Origin: Acidobacteriota bacterium
Lineage (GTDB): Bacteria; Acidobacteriota; Thermoanaerobaculia; Multivoradales; UBA5704
Assembly (NCBI GenBank): GCA_040005235.1
Contig: JBDTZG010000012.1
Span: forward strand, 46,596 to 110,595
DNA: 64,000 nucleotides
Direction: 5' to 3'
A program made the translations under genes and the position numbers. Position 1 is the first letter of the stretch, and every line of letters starts with the position of its first letter. Below the pieces are notes generated by a model. It was not told where the DNA came from, searched no databases, and saw only the letters and a program-made list of their open reading frames with translations. Shown in pieces: positions 5,437 to 24,653 of the stretch.

Positions 5437-5439
5437 GGG

Positions 5440-7019: not shown

Positions 7020-7058
7020 GTTCTACGGATATACTCCGGTCCCTTTTCGAGGTTCTTG

Positions 7059-7412: not shown

Positions 7413-7434
7413 GGGATCGGGGCGCAAAGGAACG

Positions 7435-7737
7435 ATGCCGAACGACCGGGACGCTTTGGAGTCCGCGCTACGGATCGCCCGCCTCGAAGCGCGGGTGGCC
7501 ACGCTCGAAGAGGCGTTGCTGCGCCGCTCCAGGGAGTTGCGCGAGCTGCAGCGTCATCTGCCGAGCTGGGAGCTTTTGAACCTGTCGCGCCTGGCCGGCG
7601 GGCTGCCTCCGGTTCCCCACGGACGCTACGACCTCGAAGTCTGGCGCGAGACGACCGCACTTTCCCACGCGAGCGTAGAAGAGACGCTGCTCGACCTTTG
7701 GCAGAGCCTGACCCCTACAGTCGCCGCCTCCCGATGA
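7435..7737 (+). CDS. Small hypothetical protein with an N-terminal coiled coil
   Basis: AAGGA RBS; RIARLEARVATLEEALLRRSRELRELQR; ATGA overlap with the next gene. Confidence 0.6.
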   Translation: MPNDRDALESALRIARLEARVATLEEALLRRSRELRELQRHLPSWELLNLSRLAGGLPPVPHGRYDLEVWRETTALSHASVEETLLDLWQSLTPTVAASR

Positions 7738-9620
7738 CCGATTTTGCCTCGACATCGCCTCCCGGCGCCCCGTCGCGGAAGGCCACGCTGCTGGTTCTCG
7801 CCTGGAATCGTTGGGATCTCACCGAGCGCTGCCTCGCCACCCTGCTTACGACCGACCTTAGAAACACCGAGGTTCTGGTGGTCGACAACGGTTCGACCGA
7901 TGAGACGCCGGAGCGGCTGGCCGAAATCAGCGGGATCCGCGTGCTGCGGCTGCCTAAAAACCTCGGCTTCGTGCGCGGCAACAACGCCGGAATCGCCGCC
8001 GTCGATCCGGCCAACGACATCGTCTTGTTGAACAACGACCTGATTTTTACTCAGGACGACTGGCTGACCCGCCTGCGCGCGGCCGCCGTGTCGGACCCGA
8101 AGATCGGCGTCGTCGGCGCCCGGCTGCGGCTGCCGGACGGCAGGTTGCTCCATGCCGGAACTTACATCCTGCCCGACACCATGTGGGGCCAGCAGATCGG
8201 ATCGCTCGAACAGGACCTCGGCCAGTACACGGCGGAGGTCCGCGAGGTCGAGGGGATCGTCTTTGCCTGCGCCTATATCAAGCGCGAGCTGATGGCGCAG
8301 ATCGGCGGCCTGGCGCTCGATTTCGAGTCGTATTTCGAGGACACCGACTACTGCTTGCGGGCGCGGGACGCGGGCTTTAAGACCGTCGTCTGCGGCGGCG
8401 TCACTCTGATCCATGACGAGCACGGCTCGACCCAAAACGACCCCGATTCGCTCGGCCGCCTGTTCCAGACCAGCCGCGCGACGTTCCGGGCGAAATGGGG
8501 ATCGGATCTGGCGGACCGCTACGGGCATCGCCTGCTCTGGCAGTCGATCATGAACTTCCCCACCGGCTACGCGATGAGCTGCCGCGAGATCCTGCGCGCG
8601 CTCGATGCCGAGGGGGTGGAGGTCGCCTACCGCTACGTCTACGGGCCGCGCACGGTATTTCCGCCCAACGAGCCGGAGGACAGCGAGGACTACCGGCTGA
8701 ACGTGCTGCGCTCGCGGCGCGTCTCGTGGCGCCCGAAAGCCTCGGTGGTCTACGGCCAGGCCGACGTCTTTGGCAGCAACCGCGGCCGGATCAAGATTGG
8801 CTACACGATGCTCGAAGTCGACGGCTTCCCCCGCGACTGGGTGCGCGCGGCGCAGAAGATGGCCGAGGTCTGGGTGCCGAGCGAGTTCAACCGGCAGGGA
8901 TTTCTCGACTCGGGTCTCACCCGGCCGATCCAGATCGTCCCTCTCGGCGTCGACACCCATTATTTCCATCCCGGGCTCCACTCCTTCCCCAACCCGCATG
9001 GGGAATACGTCTTCTTCTCCGCATTCGAGTGGGGGGAGCGCAAAGAGCCCGGTCTGCTGCTCAAGATCTTCAACGACGAGTTCGGCTGCGACGAGCCGGT
9101 GCGTCTGGTCTGCAAGGTGATCAATCGCGATCCCGGCTTGAAGCTCAAGGAGGAGATCCGCGCCCTGCGCCTGCGCGATCAGGGGGGCCGGATCTCGTTC
9201 CTGTTCAACCAGGAGTTCCCCCACTATCAGCTCGGTTCGCTCTACCGGTCAATGGACTGTTTCGTCTCGGTGTCGCGCGGCGAGGGGTGGAACATGCCGC
9301 TGATGGAGGCGATGGCCTGCGGCCTTCCCGCGATCGCCACCGATTGGGGCGCTCATCGCGAGTTCGTCCACGAGGGGAACGCCTATCCGCTGCGCGTTCG
9401 CGGCACCATCCCCGCGATCGCAAAGTGCCCCTATTACACGGGTTTCCGTTGGGCCGATCCGGACCCCGACCACCTGCGCCACCTGATGCGCTGGGTGTTC
9501 GAGCACCGCGACGAGGCGCGGGCCAAAGGCGCCCAAGCCGCCCGCGAGGTCGCCGAACGTTGGACCTGGCGGCACACCGCGCAGAAGATCGTCGCGCGGT
9601 TGACGGCATTGGGCGCCTGA
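7734..9620 (+). CDS. Fused GT2 + GT4-like glycosyltransferase
   Basis: N-terminal GT2 (VVDNGSTD, NLGFVRGNN, LLNND, YFEDTDYC); C-terminal GT-B (VWVPSEFN, VPLGVD, ERK, RGEGWNMPLMEAMACGLPAIAT). Confidence 0.92.
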   Translation: MTDFASTSPPGAPSRKATLLVLAWNRWDLTERCLATLLTTDLRNTEVLVVDNGSTDETPERLAEISGIRVLRLPKNLGFVRGNNAGIAAVDPANDIVLLNNDLIFTQDDWLTRLRAAAVSDPKIGVVGARLRLPDGRLLHAGTYILPDTMWGQQIGSLEQDLGQYTAEVREVEGIVFACAYIKRELMAQIGGLALDFESYFEDTDYCLRARDAGFKTVVCGGVTLIHDEHGSTQNDPDSLGRLFQTSRATFRAKWGSDLADRYGHRLLWQSIMNFPTGYAMSCREILRALDAEGVEVAYRYVYGPRTVFPPNEPEDSEDYRLNVLRSRRVSWRPKASVVYGQADVFGSNRGRIKIGYTMLEVDGFPRDWVRAAQKMAEVWVPSEFNRQGFLDSGLTRPIQIVPLGVDTHYFHPGLHSFPNPHGEYVFFSAFEWGERKEPGLLLKIFNDEFGCDEPVRLVCKVINRDPGLKLKEEIRALRLRDQGGRISFLFNQEFPHYQLGSLYRSMDCFVSVSRGEGWNMPLMEAMACGLPAIATDWGAHREFVHEGNAYPLRVRGTIPAIAKCPYYTGFRWADPDPDHLRHLMRWVFEHRDEARAKGAQAAREVAERWTWRHTAQKIVARLTALGA

Positions 9621-9630
9621 GAACGTCGCC

Positions 9631-10773
9631 CTAGTCGATCGCCTCGCCCTTCTCCACCTTGGCGATCAGGTTCTCCAGGTTCTTCTTCGCCGCGTCGTCG
9701 GGCGCGGTCGTGAACGCGGCTTTCAAATGCCGCAGGGCGTCGTCTTTCTTGCCCGCGGCCGCGCTCGCTCGGCCGAGGCTCACCTCGGTCGGCCAGACCC
9801 CGGGGAAGCGCTTGCCGTTGGTCTCCAAGACCTTGATGCCGAGGGCGGTCTTCTTTGCCGCCAGGAACTGTCGGCCGGCGTTGTGAATCTCGAAGGCGCC
9901 CGCGGACGGGTGGCTGATCGCCAGATCGAGCGTCTTGGCCGATTCCGCGGTCTGGCCATTGGCTTCCTGGAGCGCGGCGAGGGTGGAGAGAGTGGTGAAA
10001 TTGGCCTGACCGCCGAACGAACCGGCTACCGCGGCCTGTGCCCAGGCGAGGCCCTCGGGCAGGTTGACCAGATGCGCGAGGCAGAAGTTCGCCGCCGCAT
10101 CCCAGTTCTGCCAGGAGAAGCCTTGGGAGTTCTGCAGCTCGCGGCGGATGTTTTCGACGTAGAGCTGGTCGGCGTTCGGCACGTCGATCTTCAAGGGGAG
10201 GGCGAGGTTTTCCCACTCCAGCTCGACCGTCGCGGTGGCCGGCTGGCGATCGACGAACTCGTAGGTCAGAAACTCGCGATAGGCGCTCTCGACCGGTTTG
10301 GCGGTCACCCGCAAAGCGTCTTGCTTGGCGTCATAGAAAAAGCTGCCCCACGCGGTCGAGTTGTGGGAAAAGACCACCGTCCATTCCTCTTTGCCCGGAA
10401 TGAAATGCAAGCCGTAGGTGCCGGCCGGGAGCGGCTTGCCTTGCACCACCACGTCCTGATCGACCGAAAACGTGGTGTTCTGGTTCGAGCCGCCCCGCCA
10501 GGGGCACTGGTCGCCGCAGGTGCCGAACCCCAGGTTCGCCAGTCCATACGGGACCAGGTCACCCCAGATCTTGCCTTTGCGGTCGGTGCCGTCCGGCGCG
10601 TGGACGTTCGGGCTGTTGTAGGTGATCTCGACGTTGACCCGGCCGATCTGCTGCGACACTTCGGAGTGCTGGTTGTCGCCGCTCGGAGGAAGGGTGAGGC
10701 CCTGGGAGACGGAGGGGGAAGCAAGTGCGAGGAGAGTGAGGAGTGTGAGGCAGGGTCTCAAAGAACGCTTCAT
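9631..10773 (-). CDS. Secreted DUF2911-domain protein with C-terminal TPR-like helices
   Basis: VSQQIG...ITYNSP...IWGDLVPYG...PWRGGSNQNT...LPAGTYGL...WGSFFYD...DALRV...LEWE. Confidence 0.85.
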   Translation of the reverse strand: MKRSLRPCLTLLTLLALASPSVSQGLTLPPSGDNQHSEVSQQIGRVNVEITYNSPNVHAPDGTDRKGKIWGDLVPYGLANLGFGTCGDQCPWRGGSNQNTTFSVDQDVVVQGKPLPAGTYGLHFIPGKEEWTVVFSHNSTAWGSFFYDAKQDALRVTAKPVESAYREFLTYEFVDRQPATATVELEWENLALPLKIDVPNADQLYVENIRRELQNSQGFSWQNWDAAANFCLAHLVNLPEGLAWAQAAVAGSFGGQANFTTLSTLAALQEANGQTAESAKTLDLAISHPSAGAFEIHNAGRQFLAAKKTALGIKVLETNGKRFPGVWPTEVSLGRASAAAGKKDDALRHLKAAFTTAPDDAAKKNLENLIAKVEKGEAID

Positions 10774-13653: not shown

Positions 13654-13872
13654 TTACGCCGAAGCGATCGCCCAGAGGAACATCACGATCCCCGCCGCGA
13701 CCAGGAAGCCGCCGGGGAACATGAAGACGATGAAGGCGAGCGGGTGCGCGGAGCTTAAGGTGAGCGCCTGGATCGCGAGTCCGGGGGCGATCAGCAGCGC
13801 CGCCCGGCGCAGGCGCTTGTCGGTCGGTCGATCGCTGGCCTGGGGGTCCGCGCCGGCTTCCAAGGCGGTCAT
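13654..13872 (-). CDS. Small two-TM membrane protein in the cytochrome operon
   Basis: ATGA overlap with the NapC/NirT gene; hydrophobic segments AALLIAPGLAIQALTL and LAFIVFMFPGGFLVAAGIVMFLWAIA. Confidence 0.7.
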   Translation of the reverse strand: MTALEAGADPQASDRPTDKRLRRAALLIAPGLAIQALTLSSAHPLAFIVFMFPGGFLVAAGIVMFLWAIASA

Positions 13873-14483
13873 GGCTTGGGCTCCTTCCACAGGGCGTGCT
13901 TGGCGATGTTGGCCGCGTCGTGAACGTCGCTGTGGCATTCGATGCAGGAAGTCTTCTCGGCCGCGAGGTCTTCCAGCTGGTCGTCGTGCCCTTCGCTCTC
14001 GACGTAGCCGCGCGATCCGGCATGGCAATGCAGGCACTCGCGATTCTGGAACGGCTCGTACAGCGCGATCTTCGCGGGCATCGTGCCGAGATAGTTGATA
14101 TACAGATGGCGCAGGCCGCGGATCTTCGACTTGAATCCGCCGAACATGGCGTAGTTCGTATGGCAGGTGTAACACGCCTGGTCGCGCGGGATGCGCCGGT
14201 TCTGGAAGTGCGCCGCCGGCACGAAGTCGGCGCTGTCGATGTGAAGGCTCTTGCCGTACGGCTCCATCACGTGGCAGGAAAGGCAGAACTCGGTCGATTT
14301 CGACCGCTCGAGGTGCGCTTCGAGCGCGAAGACGGTGCCCAGCACGGGCAGCAGGAAAAACGCCAGGAACGCCAGAACCTTGCCGCCGCGAACGGCGGTG
14401 AGATTCGGACGAACGGCGACGACGGCGATCAATGCGATCGCAAAGACGATCAGCGAGACGACGGCCAAGGCCATGCCGGACAT
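13869..14483 (-). CDS. NapC/NirT (CymA-like) membrane-anchored tetraheme cytochrome c
   Basis: Two N-terminal TM helices; four CxxCH motifs (CLSCH, CYTCH, CLHCH, CIECH); STEFCLSCHVM signature. Confidence 0.9.
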   Translation of the reverse strand: MSGMALAVVSLIVFAIALIAVVAVRPNLTAVRGGKVLAFLAFFLLPVLGTVFALEAHLERSKSTEFCLSCHVMEPYGKSLHIDSADFVPAAHFQNRRIPRDQACYTCHTNYAMFGGFKSKIRGLRHLYINYLGTMPAKIALYEPFQNRECLHCHAGSRGYVESEGHDDQLEDLAAEKTSCIECHSDVHDAANIAKHALWKEPKP

Positions 14484-14514
14484 GCGGCGATTCCCTCCCG
14501 TTTCAAGCGAAGCT

Positions 14515-14856
14515 TCACTTGGCCTTCTGAGCTACCAGCCAATCCAAAACCGCTTGGATCTCCTCGTCGGTTCCCTTGAATTCCTTCGTGTGCTTCTTGC
14601 CTTTTTCTCCACCCGGCTCCAGCTTGCGCAGAAATTTGATCAGTTTCGGCGCATCCGCCGCCTTGACCTTGCCGGTGAGATCGGGCGCCTTCATCTTGTC
14701 GCTGGTTTGGGTGATTCCGGCCGCCGAAATTGAATGACAAAGGTTGCATTTCTGGGCGAGGAAAATCGCCTTGCCATCCAAAGCAGCTCCGGCCGCCGAA
14801 ACGAAGGTCAAGGCGAGGCCCACGGTGAAAGCCGCCAGTAGTCGTCGATTTTGCAT
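14515..14856 (-). CDS. Periplasmic monoheme cytochrome c (MtoD-like position)
   Basis: Signal peptide; DGKAIF...KCNLCH...APDL; candidate distal His in KKHTK. Confidence 0.85.
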   Translation of the reverse strand: MQNRRLLAAFTVGLALTFVSAAGAALDGKAIFLAQKCNLCHSISAAGITQTSDKMKAPDLTGKVKAADAPKLIKFLRKLEPGGEKGKKHTKEFKGTDEEIQAVLDWLVAQKAK

Positions 14857-14971
14857 TGAGGTCTTCTCCTGTCAGTAACGACCGGAGTGTAACGCCGCGG
14901 TCCACGCGTAGGGACCCAGAGCGGCGGTTGTTCAAGAAGTCTACCCCACGGCGCGCGGCTACCCTTTTGTC

Positions 14972-14989
14972 CCTACCCTGGAGGGTAGG
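14972..14989. promoter_or_regulatory. Palindromic operator candidate in the divergent cytochrome promoter region
   Basis: CCTACCCT-GG-AGGGTAGG is a perfect inverted repeat; additional CTACCC half-sites occur at about 14941 and 14959. Confidence 0.45.
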
Positions 14990-15114
14990 AGCGAGGCCAC
15001 CTCGCAAGAGTGCGACTTTCTCCCCTCGATCTGAAGAATGAACCTCGTCGTACTTTCTCGATCCAGCTTCACCAGAGAGAGCCGGTCCTTTACGTCCGGT
15101 CGGAGGGGCTCCGC

Positions 15115-16101
15115 ATGAATCTCAGACTTCGAGTCGCGTTCATCACCCTGGTCGCCGCCCTATGGCTCGGCGGTGCCGCCGGTGCTCTGGGCTTCGCCCT
15201 GATCCCGGGACACTCCCCCGAGACCCCCGCCCCTCCGACCGCTCCGGCATCCACCGCCACCTCCGCGCCCGCCGTTCCGGTATCTTCCGGATACGCCGGC
15301 AGCGAGGCGTGCGTCGGCTGCCATGGCGACCAGGCCGATCATCTGGCCAATACCCCGCACGGCCGCGCGGGATTCGCCAAGCTCTCGTCGCTCGGCTGCG
15401 AGACCTGCCACGGGCCGGGCAACGCCCACGCGGAAACGCCGGACGATCCCGCCCTGTATCCCAAGCTTGAGAACCTGACGGCGGCCAAGGCCTCCGCCGT
15501 CTGCCAGGGCTGCCACTCGGGGGGCAAGCAGTTCTTCTGGCACAACGGCCGCCACGAGGCGCGCGGCCTGTCGTGCATCACCTGCCACAGCGTCCATTCT
15601 CCCAAGTCGGAGCATGCGCAGCTCAAGCAGGAGTCGGTCACCGAGCAGTGCTTCTCCTGCCACAAGGACGTGCGCGCCGACACCTGGAAGACCTCGCACC
15701 ATCCGATCCGCGAGGGCAAGATCTCCTGCGCCGACTGCCACAACCCGCACGGCACGCAGACCCCGAAGATGATCGAAGCGGCCTCGGTCAACGAGCAGTG
15801 CTACAGCTGCCACACCGAAAAGCGCGGTCCGTTTCTTTGGGAGCACCCGCCGGTCCGCGAGAACTGCCTGAACTGCCATTCGCCGCACGGATCCAACCAC
15901 CTGAAGCTGCAGAAGACCTCGGTGCCGTTCCTCTGCCAGCAGTGCCACGCCAACACGCGGCATCCCGGCACGCTCTACGACGCCACCACGCTGGCCGACG
16001 GCGCGCGGGCGAGCAACCGAATCTTCAATCGTGCCTGTCTCGACTGCCACGCCTCGATCCATGGCAGCAACCATCCGTCGAGCCCGTACCTTGGCCATTG
16101 A
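15115..16101 (+). CDS. DmsE/MtrA/MtoA-family decaheme cytochrome c
   Basis: Ten CxxCH motifs (CVGCH, CETCH, CQGCH, CITCH, CFSCH, CADCH, CYSCH, CLNCH, CQQCH, CLDCH); EKRGPFLWEHPPV; IHGSNHPS. Confidence 0.95.
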   Translation: MNLRLRVAFITLVAALWLGGAAGALGFALIPGHSPETPAPPTAPASTATSAPAVPVSSGYAGSEACVGCHGDQADHLANTPHGRAGFAKLSSLGCETCHGPGNAHAETPDDPALYPKLENLTAAKASAVCQGCHSGGKQFFWHNGRHEARGLSCITCHSVHSPKSEHAQLKQESVTEQCFSCHKDVRADTWKTSHHPIREGKISCADCHNPHGTQTPKMIEAASVNEQCYSCHTEKRGPFLWEHPPVRENCLNCHSPHGSNHLKLQKTSVPFLCQQCHANTRHPGTLYDATTLADGARASNRIFNRACLDCHASIHGSNHPSSPYLGH

Positions 16102-16126
16102 TCCGCATGCAACCCGGAGCGAGAAG

Positions 16127-18418
16127 ATGAGAACTCAAAAAACCGTCTCCCTTCCGATCCTGACGCTGGTGCTTCTGCTGGCGCCGCTCGGCTCCTCGTT
16201 CGCCGCCGACCCCGCTGCGGTCGCGAGCGGAGGCTCGGGCCAAGGACCGTTCACCTTCCACCTCGACCCCGTGGCGATCGAGTGGCTTTCCCTCGATCAG
16301 GACACGAGCTCCTCGAAGTTCCAGGAGTACCGGGACCTCGACAACGGATTCCGCATCCCGCTGCTCAAGCTCTGGGGCGCGAGCGCGGACGGCAACCGTA
16401 CGCTCGACTTTTCGGCCCAGAACGTCTGGCGCGACGACGCCCGGCTCGAGCTCGACTACGCCCAGGCCGGCAAGTACGGCCTTAGCCTGTCGTACGACAA
16501 GATTCCCCACCGCTTCGGCAACGACGCGAGCTTCCTCTGGACCCGCACGGGCGCCGGACGGTTCGAGATCGACGACGCGGTCCAGCGGGCGAACCAGGCG
16601 GCGATCACCGCTCAGTTCGCGGCGAACAAGGCTCTGGTCGCCTTCCCCTTTCTGAACAATCTGATCTCGCCGCAGATCGCGGCGGCCAAGAAGATCGACA
16701 TCTCGCTCGAACGCGAACGGACCCGGCTCGACTTCGACCTCGGTACGCTCAAGGGTCTCTCTTGGGACGTCTCGCTGTTCAACGAGAAACGGACCGGCTT
16801 GCGCCCGTACGGCGCCTCGTTCGGCTTCAGCAACGCGACCGAGATCGTCGAGCCGATCGACTACGACACCTCCGAGGTGACGGCGCGCGGCGAATGGGCC
16901 GGCAAGAACGGCGGCCTGGTGTTCGGCTTCCGCTCCTCGCGGTTTGAAAACTCGATCAAGAGCGTCACTTGGGACAACCCGTTCCGCGCCACCGACTCGA
17001 CCGATCCAGGCGCCTATTCCGCCCCCGGCAGCGGTTCGATCAACGGCCCGGCGACCGGCAGGAACGCGCTCGCGCCGGACAACAAGGCGGGCAGCTTCTT
17101 CCTCGATGGTCGCTGGCGTTTCCCTTCCGGCTGGTGGACCAACGCGAGCGCGAGCAAGACCCGCATGAAGCAGGACGAGGCGCTGCTCGCCTACACCACG
17201 AACACGGCGATCAACACCCGCGGCGGCGCGCCGTTCGACGCCTCCCTGAGGTCGAATCTGCCGCAGCAGACGGCGGACCGGACGGCCGACGTCACCACCT
17301 TCTCGGCCAACGCCGGGGCTAAGTTCGCCCACAACCTGGGTCTAACGTTCCGGCTGCGTTCTTACGACTACAAGGACGACAGCGACCGGGTGACGATTCC
17401 CGGCTATGCCCGCTTCGACGCGGCGTGGATCGCCACCGCCCGGATCACCGTTCCGCCGCAGTTCACCCGCACCGATTTCGGCTCCGAGCTGACCTGGGAC
17501 GTCGTCCCCTCGACCAGCCTTGGCCTCTCCTGGAACCGCCAGAGCTGGGACCGCAAGCGGCGCGAGGTGGAAAAGACCGACGAGGACGTGTTCAAGCTGA
17601 CCGCCGATTCCCGGGCGTGGAAGAACGTTACGCTGCGCGGGGCGGTAGAGCACGGCGACAAGTCGATCGGAAACTACGACGTCGAAGCCGCGGAAGACAG
17701 CTTCATCGTCTCGGCCGGAGCCACCAACCAGCCCAGTCTGCGGAAGTACGACGAGGCCGCCCGCACCTATGACTCCTGGCGCCTCGGCGCCGATTTCGTG
17801 GCGGGTGACGCCTGGACGTTCACTCTCGCCACCACCGGCCGGAAGGACGACTACGACAAGAGCCTGCTCGGCCTGATCTCGGACGACACGCAGCACCTCG
17901 ATTTCGAGCTCGCCTACACTCCGAGCGAGAAGCGGGACGTCTATCTGTTCGGCGACCGCTCGAACCGCAAAACCTTCCAGAAATCGCGCCAGTCGGGGGC
18001 GCTCCCCTCGACCAGCACGCTCGACAACTGGCAGGTCAAGTTCGACGAGATCAACGACGTCTGGGGCCTCGGCTGGAACCAGAAGTACTCCGAAAAGTGG
18101 AAGAGCGCCGTCGAAGGTCGCTGGTCGAAGTCCAACGGCAAAGCCGACATCTTCAGCCCGCCGGGCGGCACGCCGGACATCGCCTTCGGGTTCGACAACT
18201 ACGAGGACATCGAGCTGCTGTCGATCTCCGGCAAGCTCGACTTCACCCTCAACTCCCACGTCGGCCTCGGCTTTTGGTACCAGTACGAGGACTACACGAT
18301 CGACAGCTTCATCCGCCAGGGCCTCCAGAACTACCTGCCCGGCACGTTGCTCCTGAACGCCAACAACGGCGACTACAACGCGAACCTGTTCGCGGGGTAT
18401 GTGCGGTTGAGTTTGTAG
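16127..18418 (+). CDS. MtrB/PioB/MtoB-family outer-membrane beta-barrel
   Basis: Directly after the decaheme gene; signal peptide; SSKFQEYRDL, EPIDYDT, WDNPF, APDN, RKYDEAAR motifs; amphipathic strands. Confidence 0.92.
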   Translation: MRTQKTVSLPILTLVLLLAPLGSSFAADPAAVASGGSGQGPFTFHLDPVAIEWLSLDQDTSSSKFQEYRDLDNGFRIPLLKLWGASADGNRTLDFSAQNVWRDDARLELDYAQAGKYGLSLSYDKIPHRFGNDASFLWTRTGAGRFEIDDAVQRANQAAITAQFAANKALVAFPFLNNLISPQIAAAKKIDISLERERTRLDFDLGTLKGLSWDVSLFNEKRTGLRPYGASFGFSNATEIVEPIDYDTSEVTARGEWAGKNGGLVFGFRSSRFENSIKSVTWDNPFRATDSTDPGAYSAPGSGSINGPATGRNALAPDNKAGSFFLDGRWRFPSGWWTNASASKTRMKQDEALLAYTTNTAINTRGGAPFDASLRSNLPQQTADRTADVTTFSANAGAKFAHNLGLTFRLRSYDYKDDSDRVTIPGYARFDAAWIATARITVPPQFTRTDFGSELTWDVVPSTSLGLSWNRQSWDRKRREVEKTDEDVFKLTADSRAWKNVTLRGAVEHGDKSIGNYDVEAAEDSFIVSAGATNQPSLRKYDEAARTYDSWRLGADFVAGDAWTFTLATTGRKDDYDKSLLGLISDDTQHLDFELAYTPSEKRDVYLFGDRSNRKTFQKSRQSGALPSTSTLDNWQVKFDEINDVWGLGWNQKYSEKWKSAVEGRWSKSNGKADIFSPPGGTPDIAFGFDNYEDIELLSISGKLDFTLNSHVGLGFWYQYEDYTIDSFIRQGLQNYLPGTLLLNANNGDYNANLFAGYVRLSL

Positions 18419-18570: not shown

Positions 18571-19821
18571 TTAGCAGAGCGCGGGGCGCAAGGAGAGCGC
18601 GTCGACGATCTCCTCGACGTTCAGCTCCGGCACGAACAGCTCGGGCGCCAGGCGCTCGAGGTGAGCTTCGACCAGCGGCAACCCTCCGGGCAGGTCGGGC
18701 AGCGTCTCGCGCGCCTCGGCGCTTGCGGCGTAGCGGAAGTAGGGACAGCCCTCGGGGGTGTTTTCGCGCAGGAGGCGATCGACCAGACCGCCGGTGGCGG
18801 GGTTGACCCGGCCGACCACTCCTTCGAGGAAGATCATTGCCGTCGGCCCTTCTTCGGCGAATCGGGCGGCTTCTTTCCCCGCTTCCTCCGCCAGACGGCG
18901 GGCGGCGAGCGGATATTTCGGCGCGAACGGCCGGTCGACCGGACCGGCGAGCTGGCGCGCGATCCGCTGCCGCAGATCTTCGAAAGTCCAGCGCTCCGTC
19001 CCCTCGAAGCCGAGCAGGTTGAAGCGGTCTCGGGCGCCCACTCGCACCTTGCCGTGCTCGGAGCGGACGCTGGTCGGCGAGTTGAAATAGTCGCGGCCGG
19101 TGAGCGGATCGGCCACGGGGGGAAAGAAGCCGAACAGCCGGCCGTCGAGATCGCGCCCGCCGTGGGCTGCGCGCTCCGCGACCTCGGACTCGACCCGGGC
19201 GGCAAAGCCGGGATCGCCGAGCCAGGCAGAGGGCTCTGCGGCGACGGGGGTGAGCACTGCGATCGAGGCCATCGAGGCGTTCCACCTCGCGAGCGTCCGG
19301 CGTGCCACCGTTTCTTCGAGGTCGAGTACCCGGCCTCCCCGATGTGCGGCGAGCAACTCGCGCCACTCGTCGAGCCGGGCGAGATCGACCGCCGGGTGGG
19401 CCGCGAGGCGAACCGCAGCGAGCGCGGACTCGTTTTCGTCCCCTACGGTTCCGGCGAGGGCGGCGAAGAAAAGCTCGGACGCGACCGGGCAGCCGGCCCG
19501 CGCGTCGTCCGCTTTGAGCGCGTAGGGAAGCCAACGCTCGCGCAGCTCCGCGATCGCGTCGCGCCGGGCCGCTCGGCGGTCGGGCGCGAGGCGGATCGCG
19601 CGGCGGATCGCGGCCAGCTCGTCGTCCGAGCGGTGATAGAGAGCGCTGTACTCCTCGACCGACTGGCCGGCGTCGATCACCAGCCGGACGTGCGGCTCGA
19701 CCCCCGACGCCGCGAGCCGGGAGGCGAGGTACCCCGCCTGGGTCAGATTGAGGCCGGCGTCCTCCCGCAAATGGATCGCCTGGCCGCGGGCTTCGACGAC
19801 GAGCAGCGCGCGCCGGGTCAC
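18571..19821 (-). CDS. Hypothetical protein (416 aa), translationally coupled to the thiol dioxygenase
   Basis: GTGA overlap at 19818-19821 with the upstream gene; long ORF with globular composition; no family recognised. Confidence 0.75.
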   Translation of the reverse strand: MTRRALLVVEARGQAIHLREDAGLNLTQAGYLASRLAASGVEPHVRLVIDAGQSVEEYSALYHRSDDELAAIRRAIRLAPDRRAARRDAIAELRERWLPYALKADDARAGCPVASELFFAALAGTVGDENESALAAVRLAAHPAVDLARLDEWRELLAAHRGGRVLDLEETVARRTLARWNASMASIAVLTPVAAEPSAWLGDPGFAARVESEVAERAAHGGRDLDGRLFGFFPPVADPLTGRDYFNSPTSVRSEHGKVRVGARDRFNLLGFEGTERWTFEDLRQRIARQLAGPVDRPFAPKYPLAARRLAEEAGKEAARFAEEGPTAMIFLEGVVGRVNPATGGLVDRLLRENTPEGCPYFRYAASAEARETLPDLPGGLPLVEAHLERLAPELFVPELNVEEIVDALSLRPALC

Positions 19822-20426
19822 GGAGTTTGCGCCCGCTCCGGGTCCAGCTCGGGCGCTTCGACCATCCGGATCAGCCGCTCGCCTTCGATTTCGATTTCGC
19901 CTTCCAGGCGGAAATAACGGCAGGGCCGGCCGGCGGCTTCGTCGTAGTAGGGCGAGAACAGATCGACGAAGGCGGTGTCTTCGAACGCCCGAAGATGGTG
20001 GAGGTTGCCATCGCGCGGCTTGAGGATGTCGCAGCGATCGGCGGCTCCCACCGTCCGCTCCGGGCGGGCTCTCGCGAGGCCGGGAGAGTTGGGAACCCAA
20101 TCGTAAGAGCGGATCTCCAGGCAGCCGGCGAGCACTCGCAGCATCACCGTCATCTCGGGATGATCATGGAGCGGCAACTCGCGGCCGGCCGGGACGAGGA
20201 AGAGGGTCGCGTGAAGGTCGGGGCGCTCGAACAGCGGTCGCTCGATCCACCGCGCGGTGCGGTCGAGGGCCGCAAGATCGACTTCCAGATCGGCGCAGGT
20301 TAGGGATTCGAGCGCTGCCGCGAGGGCCGACAGATCGGGCGCGCGGGCCGACCCGAGCGTTCCGAGCATTCCGGTGGAAAACTCTCGCTCCGAAAGGTCG
20401 GCCAGGCGGCACAGCTTGGCATGCAT
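19818..20426 (-). CDS. PCO/ADO-like (plant cysteine oxidase / cysteamine dioxygenase) thiol dioxygenase, cupin fold
   Basis: LPLHDHPEMTVMLRVLAG...RSYDWV...ILKPRDGNLH...AFVDLFSPYYD...GRPCRYF reproduces the PCO/ADO motifs. The real start may be the ATG at 20369. Confidence 0.85.
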   Translation of the reverse strand: MHAKLCRLADLSEREFSTGMLGTLGSARAPDLSALAAALESLTCADLEVDLAALDRTARWIERPLFERPDLHATLFLVPAGRELPLHDHPEMTVMLRVLAGCLEIRSYDWVPNSPGLARARPERTVGAADRCDILKPRDGNLHHLRAFEDTAFVDLFSPYYDEAAGRPCRYFRLEGEIEIEGERLIRMVEAPELDPERAQTP

Positions 20427-20473
20427 GACGAATAGAATATCGCTGAAACCTGCCGACCACCGAGCCGATCGCC

Positions 20474-21694
20474 ATGGACGTCCTTGTGCTTCTCCCCGAC
20501 GCCTTCGATCGAGCCTCGTTTTCCGCCGTGCCGGGGCACCGCTTCCGATTCGTCGAGACCGAGCGCGCGATTGACCATTGGCGGCCGACCGGGTTCGATC
20601 CTCTCGCCTATCTCGATCGGGCTCGCGCCGCGGCGCGCGAGGGGCCGGTCGATGCGGTCGTTTCGACCCACGATTTGGGCGACTACCTCGCGGCGCTCCT
20701 GGCTCGCGAGCTGGGGCTGCCGGGACCGTCGCCCGAGGCGGTGTTCCTCGGCCTGCACAAGTACTACGGCCGGCGGGCGGAGCGGCAGGCCGGGTTCGCC
20801 TCGCTTCGGTGCGAGGCGCTCAATCTCGAAGAGCCCTGCCCGCGGGCGTTCGGGTATCCCTGTTTCCTGAAGGCGCCGTTCTTGAAGCTCGGACTGCTTG
20901 GGTTTAGGCTCGACGGACCGGAGGATCTGGCGCGCGCTTGGGGCATCGCGCAGCGGGAGCTGCCCGCCTGGTGCCGCCAGTACCTACCGCTGTTCCAAGC
21001 CAACGTCGATCTAGATCGCTACCCTCTCGCCGGGCGCGAGATCATGCTGCTCGAAGAGCTCAAGGACGGGCCGCAGGTGACCGTCGAAGGCTGGATGCAC
21101 GAGGGCCGGTTTCACCTCTGGGCGATCACCGACACCAACGTCTTTCCCGGCTCGCGGGCGATCGACAATTTCTCCCTCCCCTCCCGCCTGCCGGCGGCGG
21201 CCCAGGCGAGTTTGGCGGAGGCCGCGGAGCGCGCGGTCCGGTCGATCGGCTTCGACGGCGGGTTCGCGAACGTCGAGCTCTGGTGGCAGGACGGAAAGGC
21301 GGTTCCGATCGAGGTGAACGCCCGGGCGGCGGCGAGCTTTTCGATCCTGTACGAACGGTGCCTTCAGACGTCGCACTGGGCGGCGATCGTCGAAGTGGCG
21401 GGCGGTGGTATGCCTTCGGCGCTTCCCCGGCCCGACGGCACGGTCGGCGGCCAGTTCAACCTGATCACGTTCGCCGAAGGGCGCGTGGGCGACCTGCTGG
21501 ATCTCGGCGCCGCCCGCGAGGTGGCGGGAATTTCGCTCGACCGTTCGGCCGACGAGGTCGTCCGGCCGGTGAGCGAGTTCGGCGTCGTCCTCGCCCAGGT
21601 CGAGCTGTTCGGCGGAAGCTACGAGGAGATCCACGCCGAGGCGACCCGGATTCGGCGCCGGCTGTTGAAGCGGCCGGAGAATTCGCCGGGGTGA
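20474..21694 (+). CDS. ATP-grasp carboxylate-amine ligase-like protein
   Basis: LARELGLPG, HKYY, YPCFLKAP, LLEEL..GPQVTVEG, GFANVEL...IEVNAR. Confidence 0.85.
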   Translation: MDVLVLLPDAFDRASFSAVPGHRFRFVETERAIDHWRPTGFDPLAYLDRARAAAREGPVDAVVSTHDLGDYLAALLARELGLPGPSPEAVFLGLHKYYGRRAERQAGFASLRCEALNLEEPCPRAFGYPCFLKAPFLKLGLLGFRLDGPEDLARAWGIAQRELPAWCRQYLPLFQANVDLDRYPLAGREIMLLEELKDGPQVTVEGWMHEGRFHLWAITDTNVFPGSRAIDNFSLPSRLPAAAQASLAEAAERAVRSIGFDGGFANVELWWQDGKAVPIEVNARAAASFSILYERCLQTSHWAAIVEVAGGGMPSALPRPDGTVGGQFNLITFAEGRVGDLLDLGAAREVAGISLDRSADEVVRPVSEFGVVLAQVELFGGSYEEIHAEATRIRRRLLKRPENSPG

Positions 21695-21758
21695 CCTTTC
21701 GGACTACAATCCACAACTCGCGCTCGGTTCTATTTTGCACCGGGCGCCGGAGGTTCCT

Positions 21759-24653
21759 ATGAACGGTCGCCGTCGCTCCTTGCTCGCTCTCCTCGTTCTG
21801 ATCGGCGCTCTTCAGCTCGCCACCCCTGCCGCGCACGGCATCGATCATGCCGTCCAGGTGGGTCCCGGCACCACCTTCTCGCCGCAGTTCTTGGACATCA
21901 CGGCCGGCGACACCGTGACCTGGACGAGCGCAGGGGGTTTCCACAATGTCGTCGCGGACAACGGGACCTTCCGCTGTTCGAACGGCTGCGATGGCGAGGG
22001 GGGCGACGGCAGTCCCTCCGCCGCCGGCTGGAGCTTCACCCGGACCTACCCCGCCAACGGCATCTACGGCTATCACTGCGAGGTCCATGGATCACCCGGC
22101 AGCGGCATGTACGGGACGGTTACGGTGCATGGCGTGACTCCTCCGGGAACGATCCAGTTCGCTTCCACCGCTTTCACGGTCGGCGAAGAGGAGCCCTCGG
22201 TCTATTTCACGATTTCGCGAACCGGCGGCAGCGACGGCGAGGTCTCGGTCGTGATCAACACCAGCAATGGGACGGCCACAGCCGGACAGGATTACACGCC
22301 TTTGAACAACGTCATGCTGGTCTGGGGCCCCGGCGAAAGCGGGATCAAAACCTTTGGGATACCGATCACCGACGACATACTGAACGAGCCGACCGAGACA
22401 TTTTTTCTCAGCCTCTCCGATCCCCAAGGCGGCACCACCATCAGCAATCCGTCCACCGCCACCGTGACGATTCACGACAACGACGCGCCGGCTTCGCCCG
22501 GCACCATCGCTTTTACGGGAAGCTCGTTCTCCGGGCCGGAAGGCGGGGACGCCACCATTTCGATCTCTCGCACCGGCGGCACCACCGGGCCGGTCTCGGT
22601 TTCGTACGCGACGAGCAACGGCACCGCCGTCGCCGGTTCGGACTACACCGCGGCGGCGGGCACGGTGAGCTTTGCCGACGGTCAAGGGGGACCGAGGACC
22701 ATCCCGATCTCCTTGCTCGCCGACGACGCGTTCGAAGGGAGCGAAAACTTCACAGTCGCCCTCTCAGGCCCGACCGGCGGCGCCTCTCTGGGCAGCCCGA
22801 CGAACGCGAGCGTGACGATCTTGGACGACGACTCTCCCCCGCCCACGGGCGACACCTTTACGGATGCCGAAGTCGCCTGTGACGCCGCGCGCCTCACCGG
22901 CCTCCTCGCGCGGACCACGGCGACGCCGAGGGCGGCGGCCAAGCTCACGAACCTCAATGTCTCGTTCACCGGGACGGGGGATTTCGCCGGCATCGCCACC
23001 GAAGGCACCGGCCCGCAGACGGTTGAAAAGGCGCTCGCGTTTTCGTCCAATCCGGAGGAGACCACCTTCCTCCGGAACCCCGTGCGGCCGCAGCTCTTCT
23101 CGGTGAGCCTGACCCGCAACGACCTCAACTCCGACCTGGTCGCCGCCGCTACCGATCCGGAGGCGATTCGCCTGGCGATCAATCCGACGCTCGACGTGCA
23201 TCCCCCGGTCGGAAACCTACTCGCGATCGACAGCGTTTCGGGCGCTGCCGGAAAGATCGCCGACGCCAAGCCGGGCCGCGGCCTCGCGCCGCTTCTGGCG
23301 CCTTGCCATCGGCGCTTCTCCGATCGCGACGTCCACCTGTTCCGGGTACTCGCGAAGATGGCGCGAGCCGAGCTGTCGGGAGCGCCGAGGACCGAGATCG
23401 CGATCTATCGCGGAACGGAGACCGACAGCTACCGCCTGGATGCTTTCCCCTACAAAGCCAACGGCGCGAGCCTGGGCCGGCTCTCGGCGACGCTCGACGC
23501 GACGTTTACCGCCGCGGGTGCGCTCGATCAAGGGACGCTACGCATTCTGCCCCGCTGCACGGAGGGCCAGACGAGCGATTGCACGGACGTGGTGGGAGCC
23601 GCCGCTCTCGCGCTTTACCGGCCGGAGACCTCGGGAACGCCGTCCACGACTTTCGTGCGCCTCGAAAGCGGCGTCGCCGAGTTCGAATGGGACAACCTGC
23701 TCCAAGGCACCACCTGGGAAAAGCCACTGGCCGGCGTGTTTTTCCCGGCGCTTCGAGCTTCGGCCGCGCTCACCCCCACCGAAACCCTGTGCGATGAGAA
23801 CCGGCTCGCCGGACTGCTCGCCAAGTCGACCGCGCTGGCCGCGCGCAACGCGAAGACTTCGAATCTCGCGGTTTCGTTCACCGCAACCGGCGATTTCGCC
23901 GGTATCGCGACCTCGGGCAACGGTCCTGGCACGCCGGAGGCGGCGCTCGCGTTCTCCTCGAATCCGGAAGAGACGACGCTGCTGCGCAACCCGGCCCGGC
24001 CGCAGCTCTTCTCGGTGAGCGTGACCCGGAACGATCTCAACTCCGACCTCGTGGCCTCCGGCAACGCCGACGAGCTGCGCCTCTCGATCATCCCGACGCT
24101 CGACGCCAACCCGCACGCCGGCAACCTGCTCTCGATCGACAACTTGGCGGCTCCTGCCGGCCGGCCGGCCGATGCCAAGCCGGGGCGCGGCCTCGCTCCC
24201 CTGCTGAACCCTTGCCACGACGATTTCAGCGAAGCGGACGTCCACGTCTTCCGAGTGCTCGAAAAAGTCGTGCGCGGCGAATACGCGGGGGGCAAAAGTG
24301 TCGAGATCGCGATCTATCGCGGCGAGGCTTCCGACACCTACCGGATCGACGCGGTGCCGATCGGCGCCGACGGCCTCGGTCGCGGTCGGCTTTCGGCGCT
24401 GCTCGAGCTCCTTTTCACCCCCGCGGGCGACCTCGCGACCGGACGCCTCACCCTCCTTCCCCGTTGCGCCGCGGGAGAGACCACCGGTTGCACGGACGTG
24501 GTCGGAACGACGGCTCTCGCCCTGTTCAAACCGGTCCTACCGGGGGCGTTTCCACCGCCGACAACCTATCGGGTTTCGACCGCAGGACCGGCGAGCGTGA
24601 CGATCGATTTCGCGGATCTGCTCGCCGGTACGTCCTGGCGGCGACCGTTGTAG
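21759..24653 (+). CDS. Secreted protein: plastocyanin-like cupredoxin, two Calx-beta domains and a tandem-duplicated unknown domain
   Basis: GGAGG RBS; FSP..LDITAGDTVTW...HNV...YHCEVH...GMYGTVTV (type-1 Cu ligands); Calx-beta motifs (GTATAGQDY, ITDDILNEPTETF, GTAVAGSDY); two ~290-aa repeats. Confidence 0.85.
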   Translation: MNGRRRSLLALLVLIGALQLATPAAHGIDHAVQVGPGTTFSPQFLDITAGDTVTWTSAGGFHNVVADNGTFRCSNGCDGEGGDGSPSAAGWSFTRTYPANGIYGYHCEVHGSPGSGMYGTVTVHGVTPPGTIQFASTAFTVGEEEPSVYFTISRTGGSDGEVSVVINTSNGTATAGQDYTPLNNVMLVWGPGESGIKTFGIPITDDILNEPTETFFLSLSDPQGGTTISNPSTATVTIHDNDAPASPGTIAFTGSSFSGPEGGDATISISRTGGTTGPVSVSYATSNGTAVAGSDYTAAAGTVSFADGQGGPRTIPISLLADDAFEGSENFTVALSGPTGGASLGSPTNASVTILDDDSPPPTGDTFTDAEVACDAARLTGLLARTTATPRAAAKLTNLNVSFTGTGDFAGIATEGTGPQTVEKALAFSSNPEETTFLRNPVRPQLFSVSLTRNDLNSDLVAAATDPEAIRLAINPTLDVHPPVGNLLAIDSVSGAAGKIADAKPGRGLAPLLAPCHRRFSDRDVHLFRVLAKMARAELSGAPRTEIAIYRGTETDSYRLDAFPYKANGASLGRLSATLDATFTAAGALDQGTLRILPRCTEGQTSDCTDVVGAAALALYRPETSGTPSTTFVRLESGVAEFEWDNLLQGTTWEKPLAGVFFPALRASAALTPTETLCDENRLAGLLAKSTALAARNAKTSNLAVSFTATGDFAGIATSGNGPGTPEAALAFSSNPEETTLLRNPARPQLFSVSVTRNDLNSDLVASGNADELRLSIIPTLDANPHAGNLLSIDNLAAPAGRPADAKPGRGLAPLLNPCHDDFSEADVHVFRVLEKVVRGEYAGGKSVEIAIYRGEASDTYRIDAVPIGADGLGRGRLSALLELLFTPAGDLATGRLTLLPRCAAGETTGCTDVVGTTALALFKPVLPGAFPPPTTYRVSTAGPASVTIDFADLLAGTSWRRPL

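Follow-up and report, generated by a model that had tools for sequence, protein, structure and literature searches.

The PCO/ADO-family thiol dioxygenase gene of a soil acidobacterium belongs to a fixed three-gene module, which is found in Thermoanaerobaculia and related Acidobacteriota and in which the dioxygenase is accompanied by an ATP-grasp ligase and by a protein of an unnamed family. This conserved module is what is new here; it is the most informative feature of the locus, and a preliminary description of the same DNA had overlooked it. In the window analysed, a stretch of 64,000 nucleotides from an Acidobacteriota bacterium, the dioxygenase gene (PF07847) occupies positions 19818..20426 of the minus strand, with an ATG start and a product of 202 aa. 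On the same strand lies the gene of UNK416 (18571..19821), a 416-aa protein whose family has no Pfam match, and on the plus strand, divergent from the dioxygenase, lies the gene of a 406-aa ATP-grasp carboxylate-amine ligase (20474..21694). The divergent starts of the dioxygenase and the ATP-grasp gene are separated by an intergenic spacer of 47 bp (20427..20473), and both match the N-termini of homologues. The GTG start of UNK416 overlaps the TGA stop of the dioxygenase gene (GTGA), which suggests that the two are translationally coupled.

The dioxygenase had been described as a bacterial homologue of the plant and animal enzymes on the strength of five motifs, all of which were found in the translation in the order claimed, an agreement far beyond chance: PLHDHPEM at residues 85-92, RSYDWV at 106-111, GNLH at 140-143, AFVDLFSPYYD at 152-162 and GRPCRYF at 166-172. 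Comparison of the two relevant Pfam profiles bore out this placement, since PCO_ADO (PF07847) matched with 99 bits (E 3.1e-28), far above the cut-off of 27, whereas CDO_I (PF05995) gave no match at E<=1. A phmmer search against the PDB retrieved PCO2 (5.1e-18), PCO5 (4e-16) and ADO (5.5e-15), the best sequence matches, PCO2, PCO5, ADO and PCO4, spanning 5e-18 to 3e-14, while CDO type 1 reached only E 0.06-0.45 in the same search. The AF2 model (pLDDT 91.1), a double-stranded beta-helix, ranked accordingly in Foldseek: PCO4, PCO2, PCO5 and ADO came first (E 9e-17 to 1e-14, TMq 0.71-0.80), ranks 1-19 were all PCO/ADO entries, and CDO appeared from rank 23 on, with E 2e-10 and weaker and TMq 0.50-0.63. 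Pfam, PDB sequence and fold searches thus agree in ruling out a CDO/MDO or a generic cupin; a separate CDO_I gene (43.7 bits) is present elsewhere in the same genome, on another contig. The open reading frame therefore belongs to the PCO/ADO family, and by sequence and predicted fold it is a genuine relative of the oxygen-sensing cysteine dioxygenases of plants and animals. Its N-terminus has no signal-peptide-like features, and the product is predicted to act in the cytoplasm as an active thiol dioxygenase that depends on Fe(II) and O2.

The metal ligands of human ADO (hADO), its essential catalytic Asp, a Tyr that hydrogen-bonds the thiol and a Phe that stacks on the substrate amide have been described (PMC8503633, PMC12098869), and residue equivalences were drawn from these reports together with PDB and homologue alignments. 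The proposed Fe ligands H87, H89 and H143 correspond, in sequence and in the predicted model, to hADO H112, H114 and H193; D155, itself invariant and set in V-D155-L, corresponds to the catalytic D206 (PMC10966181, PMC12098869); F76, placed 11 residues before H87 as F101 is before H112, to the amide-stacking F101; Y161 to the active-site Y212; and the pair C169/Y171 to C220/Y222. All eight residues align to their hADO counterparts without gaps. Seven of them (H87, H89, H143, D155, Y161, F76 and Y171) do not vary among 20 bacterial and plant sequences, in which C169 reaches at least 90% conservation. The hairpin 161-169, ending in C169/Y171, has nine residues, equal in length to hADO 212-220 and PCO4 182-190. 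By these alignments, every catalytic or substrate-contacting residue known from human ADO is retained. The remark that the usual PPY reads PYY in this protein was accurate: the motif is S-P-Y-Y, in which the Tyr of Pro-Pro-Tyr (Y161) is kept and the second Pro is changed to Tyr, a clade-specific variant that marks the acidobacterial clade, occurs in 52 of 215 rows and needs only five changes on the tree. Such a change, in a protein shorter than the characterised members, might mean that this cupin has come to act on something other than a thiol or has a role outside catalysis. We hold this to be very improbable, as the metal ligands and catalytic residues are all invariant across the clade down to about 40% identity, and the invariance of the site residues despite such divergence argues for retained chemistry.

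By tblastn, the genes of UNK416 and the ATP-grasp protein adjoin the dioxygenase gene in all 24 Acidobacteriota loci with readable neighbours, and in 24 of 40 prokaryotic loci overall, all 24 being labelled Acidobacteriota; the identity of the dioxygenases among these module loci falls to about 40%. Eight loci have the ATP-grasp gene in divergent orientation; in the other 16 it runs in the same direction with little space between the genes, as in locus L017, where the three genes lie at 4699-5904, 5932-6510 and 6507-7763 with gaps of 27 bp and -4 bp and where the dioxygenase stop overlaps the UNK416 start as ATGA. In a survey of 301 genomes of the class, strong matches to the dioxygenase (E<=1e-20), matches to UNK416 and orthologues of the ATP-grasp protein (E<=1e-190) shared one set of 16 genomes, where they lay side by side, and UNK416 was found in none of the remaining 285. 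The 16 genomes with the module are all free of the flag for unpublished data; the tallies 69/301, 249/301 and 19/301 include genomes so flagged (among G166, G204, G207, G136 and G044), as does the weak-paralogue count f14 of 63/72 (G166, G204 and G207), and one distant ATP-grasp paralogue is in G044. A predicted protein of 591 aa, P0078, carries an ATP-grasp region 55% identical to that of the window (E 2e-139) fused to a PCO_ADO domain; it was seen only once, on a single contig, and a frameshift may have produced it artificially. The module includes no gene for a transporter, a decarboxylase or a regulator from which its product might be guessed, and a search for RNA data containing the 3.1-kb module found none. 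Two DNA runs, from soil and root metagenomes, contain it, and the assembly itself may derive from them.

This arrangement bears on the simplest reading of the enzyme, that of a plain cysteamine (2-aminoethanethiol) dioxygenase that makes hypotaurine and whose neighbours are functionally unrelated. JGI names close relatives 'cysteamine dioxygenase', and the family member ADO oxidises cysteamine (PMC10966181, PMC12170894). Strict adjacency, co-occurrence of the three genes in 16/16/16 of 301 genomes, the codon overlaps and the one fusion are nevertheless hard to square with unrelated neighbours, and no gene handling hypotaurine or taurine was seen beside the dioxygenase, so that we consider this reading rather unlikely.

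Neither Pfam nor NCBIfam names the UNK416 family, no Pfam model matched any of 14 members even at E<=10, and a sequence-profile search against the PDB gave no match. The homologues form 133 clusters from Thermoanaerobaculia or Acidobacteria, in which every given name is 'hypothetical protein'. The AF2 model (pLDDT 90.3) is alpha/beta and Rossmann-like, and among 48,161 chains compared with VIA-align its top structural match is BshC (4wbd), with Z 11.9, rmsd 5.0 A and 9% identity over 292 of 416 residues; the runner-up has Z 9.8 with 126 residues aligned, and class I LysRS, ArgRS, CysRS and MshC score Z 7.4-9.1. Foldseek returned nothing from the PDB at E<=0.001, BshC reaching only E 0.0097; the family profile aligned to the genome's own BshC with an hhalign probability of 0.15, and the BshC Pfam models PF10079 and PF24850 did not match UNK416. 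The likeness to BshC is thus a structural one only, seen in the predicted model, and a sequence relation was not detected. Sir2-type names among ESM Atlas look-alikes (best 0.77-0.79) lie below the noise level and provide no lead. Prediction of a complex between the dioxygenase and UNK416 scored 0.00, which gives no verdict and is evidence neither way.

LmbE-family proteins also resemble the UNK416 model, with Z 7.4-8.3 over 165-193 residues (MshB 1q74, Dbv21 3dfi and diacetylchitobiose deacetylase), and because such deacetylases reach Z about 8 a hydrolase role for UNK416 is possible. The invariant H17-x-x-E20-D21 that follows its first strand loosely resembles the LmbE metal motif. UNK416 might then be an amidase that frees an aminothiol, for instance from a bacillithiol conjugate, which the dioxygenase would oxidise irreversibly, the module serving to degrade or detoxify a thiol in a genome that makes BshC. 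Yet the BshC match is clearly the stronger one and extends over a larger part of the chain (Z 11.9, 292 aligned), the PIG-L/LmbE Pfam model does not match UNK416 even at E<=10, and it is hard to see what an ATP-grasp ligase would do in a route that only degrades; we give this reading a low probability.

Membership of the third protein in the ATP-grasp superfamily was assigned on sequence profiles. PF13535 (ATP-grasp_4) scored 27.1 bits, a borderline value given its cut-off of 27, and PF18130 (ATPgrasp_N) 25.6 bits, under its cut-off of 27; in a search of the PDB, the family profile retrieved 4dim (1.2e-10), carbamoyl-phosphate synthetase (6e-4), D-Ala-D-Ala ligase (1e-3) and the L-amino acid ligase 3vot (0.04).

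We judge it somewhat probable that the module serves small-molecule metabolism: a cysteinyl amide would be made or processed, and its thiol group converted to a sulfinate. The dioxygenase would be the oxidising step of a three-enzyme module with the ATP-grasp ligase and the Rossmann-like protein whose predicted fold is closest to BshC. One or both of these ligase-like enzymes would convert the carboxyl group of cysteine, or that of a related aminothiol, into an amide, giving a low-molecular-weight compound that resembles an N-terminal cysteine in its free alpha-amine and free thiol. Human ADO binds its substrate to iron through amine and thiol; the compound would be held in the same way, with F76 stacking on the amide, and its oxidation would then yield the sulfinate. 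Candidates for this compound are cysteinyl amides of the bacillithiol type, because the genome has a canonical BshC (183 bits), and also Cys-Xaa dipeptides; BshC is present in 16/16 module genomes but also in 249/301 genomes of the class, so that its presence in the former is uninformative. The genome also encodes two haem-copper oxidases, and O2 is therefore part of the physiology of the organism.

The retained hairpin loop and amide-stacking Phe, which set PCO/ADO enzymes apart from the small-molecule thiol dioxygenases, would suit a peptide or protein N-terminus equally well, and the enzyme could instead be a genuine N-terminal-cysteine oxidase with a peptide or protein as its substrate, the ATP-grasp protein and/or the class-I-synthetase-like UNK416 ligating a residue onto the oxidised N-terminus or processing it. 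Such a system would parallel, in bacteria and without tRNA, the eukaryotic relay from PCO/ADO to ATE1 and could act as an O2-dependent switch. The residues F76, D155 and Y161 and the hairpin of equal length, which in human ADO hold the N-terminal Cys and the first amide, are kept, and strict coupling of an oxidase to two ligase-like enzymes mirrors an oxidise-then-ligate logic. ATP-grasp enzymes that extend peptide N-termini are known, and the L/F-transferase of the bacterial N-degron pathway (PF03588) is present in the genome with 227 bits. Against this, no ATE/Bpt-type transferase (PF04377, ATE_C) was matched in a genome rated 100% complete, the Caulobacter control matching as it should; the gaps of 27 bp and -4 bp in L017 and of 47 bp in the window provide no room for a precursor-peptide ORF; and neither partner protein starts with Met-Cys. 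The dioxygenase is moreover about 40-70 residues shorter than the PCOs and ADO, and it ends near where the border region would align, a comparison that is not rigorous. This C-terminal region, hADO 249-261 and PCO4 220-231, has been proposed to hold protein substrates (PMC8503633). The bacterial protein ends at residue 202, and its alignments to PCO5 stop at query residue 184 (chain residues 207/225); in these alignments, which compare sequence without superposing the segment, no counterpart of the PCO border region was found. On balance we regard N-terminal-cysteine oxidation of a peptide or protein as unlikely, and its most far-reaching form, a bacterial system in which a PCO-like enzyme sulfinylates N-terminal Cys in proportion to O2 and the ATP-grasp protein and/or UNK416 add a residue without tRNA, as quite improbable.

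The family had been portrayed as mainly eukaryotic, which overstates its rarity in bacteria: the PCO_ADO profile finds 3689 representatives at 50% identity (E<=0.001), and homologues are present in at least 40 prokaryotic species genomes, including the close relatives labelled by JGI as mentioned above. Homologues of Planctomycetota, Myxococcota, Pseudomonadota and Verrucomicrobiota occur without the two partners, so that the family as such is not tied to the pathway of the module; the neighbours of these non-acidobacterial homologues are mixed and share no common theme (carbamoyltransferase, nitroreductase-like, HtrA-like protease, EamA, WD40, ankyrin and MFS). A relevance to the origin of eukaryotic oxygen sensing had also been suggested, and on this the phylogeny speaks in part. 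Seven named eukaryotic and 19 unlabelled rows form one clade (SH-aLRT 97), all bacteria-labelled rows fall outside it, and this topology is compatible with a bacterial origin; the tree was rooted with the genome's own CDO, the root lies among long branches where attraction is flagged, and labelled animal, fungal or protist ADO sequences are absent from it. Their absence follows from sparse row labels (naming of unlabelled rows gave names for 3 of 14 proteins, 'plant cysteine oxidase', an Acetabularia transcript and 'hypothetical protein') and from a further homologue search that returned almost only land-plant PCOs. No description of a bacterial PCO_ADO member was found in a full-text search that covered the main texts of openly accessible papers.

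Plants and animals sense O2 enzymatically through PCO and ADO. The acidobacterial protein is a compact member of 202 aa in which every catalytic and substrate-contact residue appears to be kept and which falls in a clade outside the named eukaryotic sequences; its operon with two ligase-like enzymes is a context that the eukaryotic genes cannot offer and makes the native substrate tractable by reconstitution of three proteins. The module suggests that bacteria have a thiol-oxidising pathway not described so far. Should the substrate be a cysteinyl amide, for example a bacillithiol-type thiol or a Cys-Xaa dipeptide, the oxidation of N-terminal cysteine would probably have started out as small-molecule thiol metabolism, a new sulfinate metabolite would be defined, and a handle would be gained on the Pfam-less UNK416 family, whose structural relative BshC catalyses a reaction still to be reconstituted. 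With a protein as substrate, this would be the first O2-consuming oxygen sensor of its kind in bacteria, a class of enzymatic sensor that, according to a recent review, has not been found in bacteria (PMC12170894). Were the oxidise-then-ligate reading true, the sensor logic of the eukaryotic Cys N-degron would predate eukaryotes.

Among known systems, the clusters that combine NHISS with ATP-grasp provide an analogy only: there a non-haem-iron sulfur enzyme and an ATP-grasp ligase build small thiol (thiohistidine) dipeptides (PMC13674229), but the iron enzyme is a sulfoxide synthase rather than a PCO/ADO cupin, and the ATP-grasp proteins of the two systems are of different families. The partner ATP-grasp protein of the module weakly matches the L-amino acid ligase BL00235 and ATPgrasp_N. 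BshC (4wbd), the putative cysteine ligase of bacillithiol synthesis, whose own reaction has never been reconstituted (PMC5790435), is the best whole-chain structural match of UNK416; both have a Rossmann-like shape resembling class I aminoacyl-tRNA synthetases and both are tied to a cysteinyl compound, UNK416 by its gene context, whereas BshC has about 540-590 residues with a coiled-coil and UNK416 has 416 and no match to the coiled-coil domain. CDO and 3-mercaptopropionate dioxygenase (PF05995) share with the acidobacterial dioxygenase the cupin fold and the 3-His iron site, and supply its second-tier fold matches; their Ser-His-Tyr motif is replaced in PCO/ADO by x-Asp-Leu (PMC10966181), as in this protein, which lacks a CDO_I match. 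Arabidopsis PCO2, PCO4 and PCO5 (PDB 7cxz, 6s7e and 7chi) belong to the same Pfam family and are the best matches in sequence (5e-18 to 8e-15) and in fold (TMq 0.76-0.80), with the 3-His site, the Asp, the Tyr, the nine-residue hairpin and the Cys-x-Tyr pair in common. They differ in having about 240-290 residues and P-P-Y, against 202 residues and S-P-Y-Y, and the bacterial gene stands in an operon with two ligase-like genes, with no known ERF-VII-type substrate or ATE1 partner. In human and mouse ADO (PDB 7rei, 7lvz and 9dxv) a long insertion splits the alignment in two and proline-rich loops have no equivalent in the bacterial protein; because a small aminothiol and protein N-termini both serve ADO as substrates, either the small-aminothiol or the protein reading may hold for an enzyme that belongs to the same family and has aligned equivalents of its eight site residues.

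The dioxygenase gene lies on the minus strand of the window (19818..20426), across which G+C ranges from 59 to 72%, and encodes 202 residues from an ATG start that matches the N-termini of its homologues. The preliminary description had read it as a bacterial homologue of the plant cysteine oxidases (PCO) and animal ADO, and the five motifs on which it relied are all found in the translation in the claimed order, namely PLHDHPEM (residues 85-92), RSYDWV (106-111), GNLH (140-143), AFVDLFSPYYD (152-162) and GRPCRYF (166-172). The sole Pfam match is PF07847, PCO_ADO (E 3.1e-28, 99 bits, cut-off 27); no Pfam match to CDO_I was obtained at E<=1, and NCBIfam offered no model for the dioxygenase. Against all PDB sequences the top matches were plant PCO2 (5.1e-18), PCO5, mouse and human ADO (5.5e-15 to 3e-14) and PCO4, with CDO type 1 reaching only E 0.06-0.45. 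An AlphaFold2 model built from a 20-sequence alignment (mean pLDDT 91.1, pTM 0.87) gave the same picture in Foldseek, with PCO4, PCO2, PCO5 and ADO on top (E 9e-17 to 1e-14, TMq 0.71-0.80) and CDO appearing from rank 23 on (E 2e-10, TMq about 0.62). Since the Pfam, PDB-sequence and Foldseek rankings all favour PCO/ADO, the alternative identities of CDO/MDO or generic cupin are ruled out and the proposed family assignment holds. A separate CDO_I-type gene (43.7 bits) is present on another contig of the same genome.

The nearest proteins and loci belong to metagenome-assembled genomes of Thermoanaerobaculia (Acidobacteriota), the closest being 90% identical, and close relatives are named 'cysteamine dioxygenase' by JGI and hypothetical by NCBI. 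The window's genome (6.2 Mb, 140 contigs, rated 100% complete) carries the dioxygenase in single copy. The host is aerobic-capable, having two haem-copper oxidases, and its DNA is soil- or root-associated, the runs concerned possibly being the assembly's own source. Among 40 relatives, the gene occurs in five of the seven other genomes of the genus and in none of 17 from the family's other genera, and a class-wide sample of 301 genomes gave strong matches (E<=1e-20) in 16. When 1.84 billion representatives were searched with a profile, 3689 matched at E<=0.001, of which 2327 reached E<=1e-10 and 492 reached E<=1e-30. A scan seeded with peptide patterns and covering a single genome for each prokaryotic species yielded 88 pattern matches and 40 confirmed loci, a minimum figure, since the scan used no more than two patterns. 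The class-wide counts, the profile search and the species scan therefore describe a gene that is patchy, not unique. Most of the 40 loci are from Thermoanaerobaculia, with Planctomycetota, Polyangiales, Gammaproteobacteria/Pseudomonadales and Verrucomicrobiota/Lentisphaeraceae also represented. Three homologues from Lentisphaeraceae, Verrucomicrobiota and Gammaproteobacteria (L041:316-3202, L043:5863-6576 and L044:5635-6360) begin, by eye, with Tat- or lipoprotein-like signal sequences, an indication that these proteins may be periplasmic; downstream of the L041 gene come an HtrA-like protease (Trypsin_2 and PDZ) and an EamA transporter.

The dioxygenase stop codon TGA (19820-19818) overlaps the GTG start (19821-19819) of UNK416, a 416-codon gene running from 19821 to 18571 on the minus strand, and an ATP-grasp gene (20474-21694, 406 aa) diverges from a point 47 bp upstream of the dioxygenase. 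By tblastn both partners adjoin the dioxygenase in 24 of the 40 loci, all 24 labelled Acidobacteriota, Acidobacteria or Thermoanaerobaculia, and the module is kept even in lineages whose dioxygenase shares only about 40% identity with that of the window; the 16 loci without partners are the non-acidobacterial ones and one 3-kb acidobacterial contig with unreadable neighbours. The ATP-grasp gene is divergent, as in the window, in eight loci, and 16 have the co-directional order ATP-grasp, dioxygenase, UNK416 (in locus L017 the intervals are 27 bp and -4 bp). Within the 301 genomes of the class, the UNK416 profile matches 16, ATP-grasp orthologues (E<=1e-190) occur in 16, and these are the identical 16 genomes that hold a strong dioxygenase match, with adjacent coordinates. 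The genomic association of the dioxygenase with two ligase-like enzymes has been shown to be obligatory. A stand-alone cysteamine dioxygenase, as the JGI names would have it, is a further rival reading. In a predicted metagenomic protein of 591 aa (P0078), a PCO_ADO domain is fused to an ATP-grasp region that shares 55% identity with that of the window (390 residues, E 2e-139). This protein is a singleton on a single 10-kb contig, and an artefact is possible.

Several features surround the module. A DUF2911 protein is encoded near it in the window (9634-10773, minus strand) and in distant loci (L017:10506-11666), a recurrence which shows that wider synteny is conserved in the class. Directly beside it lies an Mtr-like extracellular electron-transfer set (13872-18418), consisting of a NapC/NirT-type tetrahaem cytochrome (13872-14483, minus strand), an MtrA-like multihaem cytochrome (15010-16098, plus strand) and an MtrB/PioB outer-membrane porin (16031-18418, plus strand, 273 bits). 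Ten distant module loci have an MtrC/MtrF-like cytochrome (about 900 aa) downstream on the opposite strand, and the arrangement may reflect either synteny or a functional link. On the plus strand, 21735-24653 encodes a secreted protein of 972 aa that has a plastocyanin-like copper domain and two Calx-beta domains and whose long C-terminal half is internally duplicated. In a further genome of the module-bearing genus that has neither UNK416 nor a strong dioxygenase match, an ATP-grasp fragment with an internal TAG (G217:C186:3741-4232, model positions 42-204) looks like decay of the whole module. A weaker second PCO_ADO-like gene (about 24-35 bits, model positions about 26-145), a divergent paralogous cupin commoner than the module, occurs in 63 of 72 genomes of family f14, a count that takes in three genomes flagged unpublished (G166, G204 and G207).

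In a FastTree phylogeny of 215 domain sequences, from which one fragment of <110 aa was dropped, the S-P-Y-Y sequences fell in a 53-row clade (support 88) whose neighbours are other rows with bacterial labels and which is separate from a P-P-Y group of 106 rows containing the plant sequences, on a weak backbone. An IQ-TREE analysis of 74 rows comprised the window protein, 38 of the 40 loci, seven named eukaryotic sequences (with no animal, fungal or protist label among them), 28 representatives that carry no label and, as outgroup, the own-genome CDO; L045 and L047, whose branches are very long, and the fragment L046 were left out. Here the named eukaryotes and 19 unlabelled rows formed one clade (SH-aLRT 97), and the module-type sequences a group of 25 with three unlabelled rows (support 87). 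Every bacteria-labelled row lay outside the eukaryotic clade, which fits eukaryotic enzymes that arose inside the diversity of the bacterial ones, in a tree with a single outgroup and with a root that joins long branches and was flagged for this.

The ATP-grasp partner is a predicted carboxylate-amine ligase: it passes PF13535 marginally (27.1, cut-off 27) and touches ATPgrasp_N, and its family profile matches 4dim (1.2e-10), carbamoyl-phosphate synthetase, D-Ala-D-Ala ligase and, weakly, L-amino acid ligase in the PDB. UNK416 has no sequence match in Pfam, NCBIfam or PDB; its 133 homologous clusters are from Thermoanaerobaculia or Acidobacteria, every source-given name being 'hypothetical protein'. 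About 60 positions are invariant, many of them charged (E10, R12, G13, H17, E20 and D21, for example), including a D-x-G-Q-S-x-E-E-Y-S block and Y-F-N-S-P, a pattern typical of an enzyme. Its confident model (pLDDT 90.3, pTM 0.90) gave no Foldseek match at E<=0.001, the weak list holding class I aminoacyl-tRNA synthetases, BshC (E 0.0097, probability 0.96) and MshC. In an exhaustive VIA-align comparison with 48,161 chains, the top match was Bacillus subtilis BshC (Z 11.9, with 292 aligned residues spread over model residues 1-401 at an rmsd of 5.0 A). Universal stress proteins ranked next (Z<=9.8 over about 126 residues), then class I LysRS (Z 8.8 over 255 residues) and CysRS (Z 8.1). As unexplained models typically reach Z 7-8 in the method's own calibration, the value of 11.9 is suggestive, not proof. 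A second structure search concurred and added ArgRS, MshC (Z 7.4) and the LmbE-type deacetylase MshB (Z 8.0); a catabolic reading, a further rival, would take UNK416 as an LmbE-like amidase. Alignment of the UNK416 family profile with the genome's own BshC by hhalign found no relation (probability 0.15), the latter being canonical (PF10079 at 182 bits, with coiled-coil domain). The canonical BshC and the separate CDO_I-family dioxygenase stand at G000:C82:27969-28952 (L049) and G000:C66:22221-22568 (L048). BshC is described in passages of PMC5790435 as the putative ligase of cysteine to glucosaminyl-malate, a reaction never reconstituted, and bacillithiol synthesis genes are predicted in Acidobacteria (PMC6282198, in part).

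No paper describing a bacterial PCO_ADO enzyme was found in the searchable literature; the InterPro paper gives the family as animal and plant, and known bacterial oxygen sensors are, in passages of a 2025 review, not O2-utilising enzymes (PMC12170894). Since Pfam and JGI already assign bacterial proteins to the family automatically, the bare homology adds a new member to a known kind. What sets it apart is the variation in the active-site motif, the small size and, most of all, an invariant module of three genes, one of them encoding a Pfam-less protein of predicted BshC fold; together they point to an undescribed pathway that can be tested. If the substrate were found, the interest for research on thiol dioxygenases and oxygen sensing would be high.

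PCO/ADO enzymes require a substrate residue in which amine and thiol are free while the carboxyl is either missing or amidated (sections of PMC12098869), and bacillithiol, by the structure in part of PMC5790435, is a cysteinyl amide with a free amine. We lean towards a small-molecule route in which the ligase or ligases would build a cysteinyl amide or dipeptide whose thiol the dioxygenase would turn into a sulfinate; alternatively, the sulfinate might then be ligated further. This route is favoured because amidation of the cysteine carboxyl by a ligase yields exactly a compound of the kind that PCO/ADO enzymes require. In the main rival the substrate would be the N-terminal Cys of a peptide or protein, with ligation afterwards, by analogy with PCO/ADO followed by ATE1; however, no ATE/Bpt homologue was found in the window's genome and the operons have no space for a precursor-peptide gene.

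At the sequence level the PCO/ADO-type active site of the window protein has been shown to be complete. In an alignment with 17 bacterial or metagenomic and two plant homologues, F76, P85, L86, H87, D88, H89, P90, M92, N141, H143, D155, P159, Y161, R167 and Y171 are invariant, and C169 is conserved at >=90%. HMMER alignment to ADO and PCO equates H87, H89 and H143 with H112, H114 and H193 of human ADO, D155 with D206, Y161 with Y212, F76 with F101, and C169 and Y171 with C220 and Y222. According to parts of PMC8503633 and PMC12098869, three His of ADO/PCO bind the metal, which the N-terminal residue of the substrate reaches through its amine and side chain; in ADO, D206 is required for turnover, Y212 hydrogen-bonds the side-chain group and F101 stacks on the substrate's first amide. 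The conserved Phe and hairpin keep a peptide or protein N-terminal-Cys substrate in play, and the shortness of the protein counts against it. Known PCO/ADO members are about 40-70 residues longer, a counterpart of their C-terminal 'border region' not being established, and have P-P-Y where the window protein has S-P-Y-Y. Small-molecule thiol dioxygenases, in passages of PMC10966181, have Ser-His-Tyr where it has x-Asp-Leu; and the hairpin, which spans residues 212-220 in ADO and 182-190 in PCO4 and which CDO and MDO lack (PMC8503633 and PMC12098869, in part), corresponds to residues 161-169 of the window protein, with an equal length of 9 residues.
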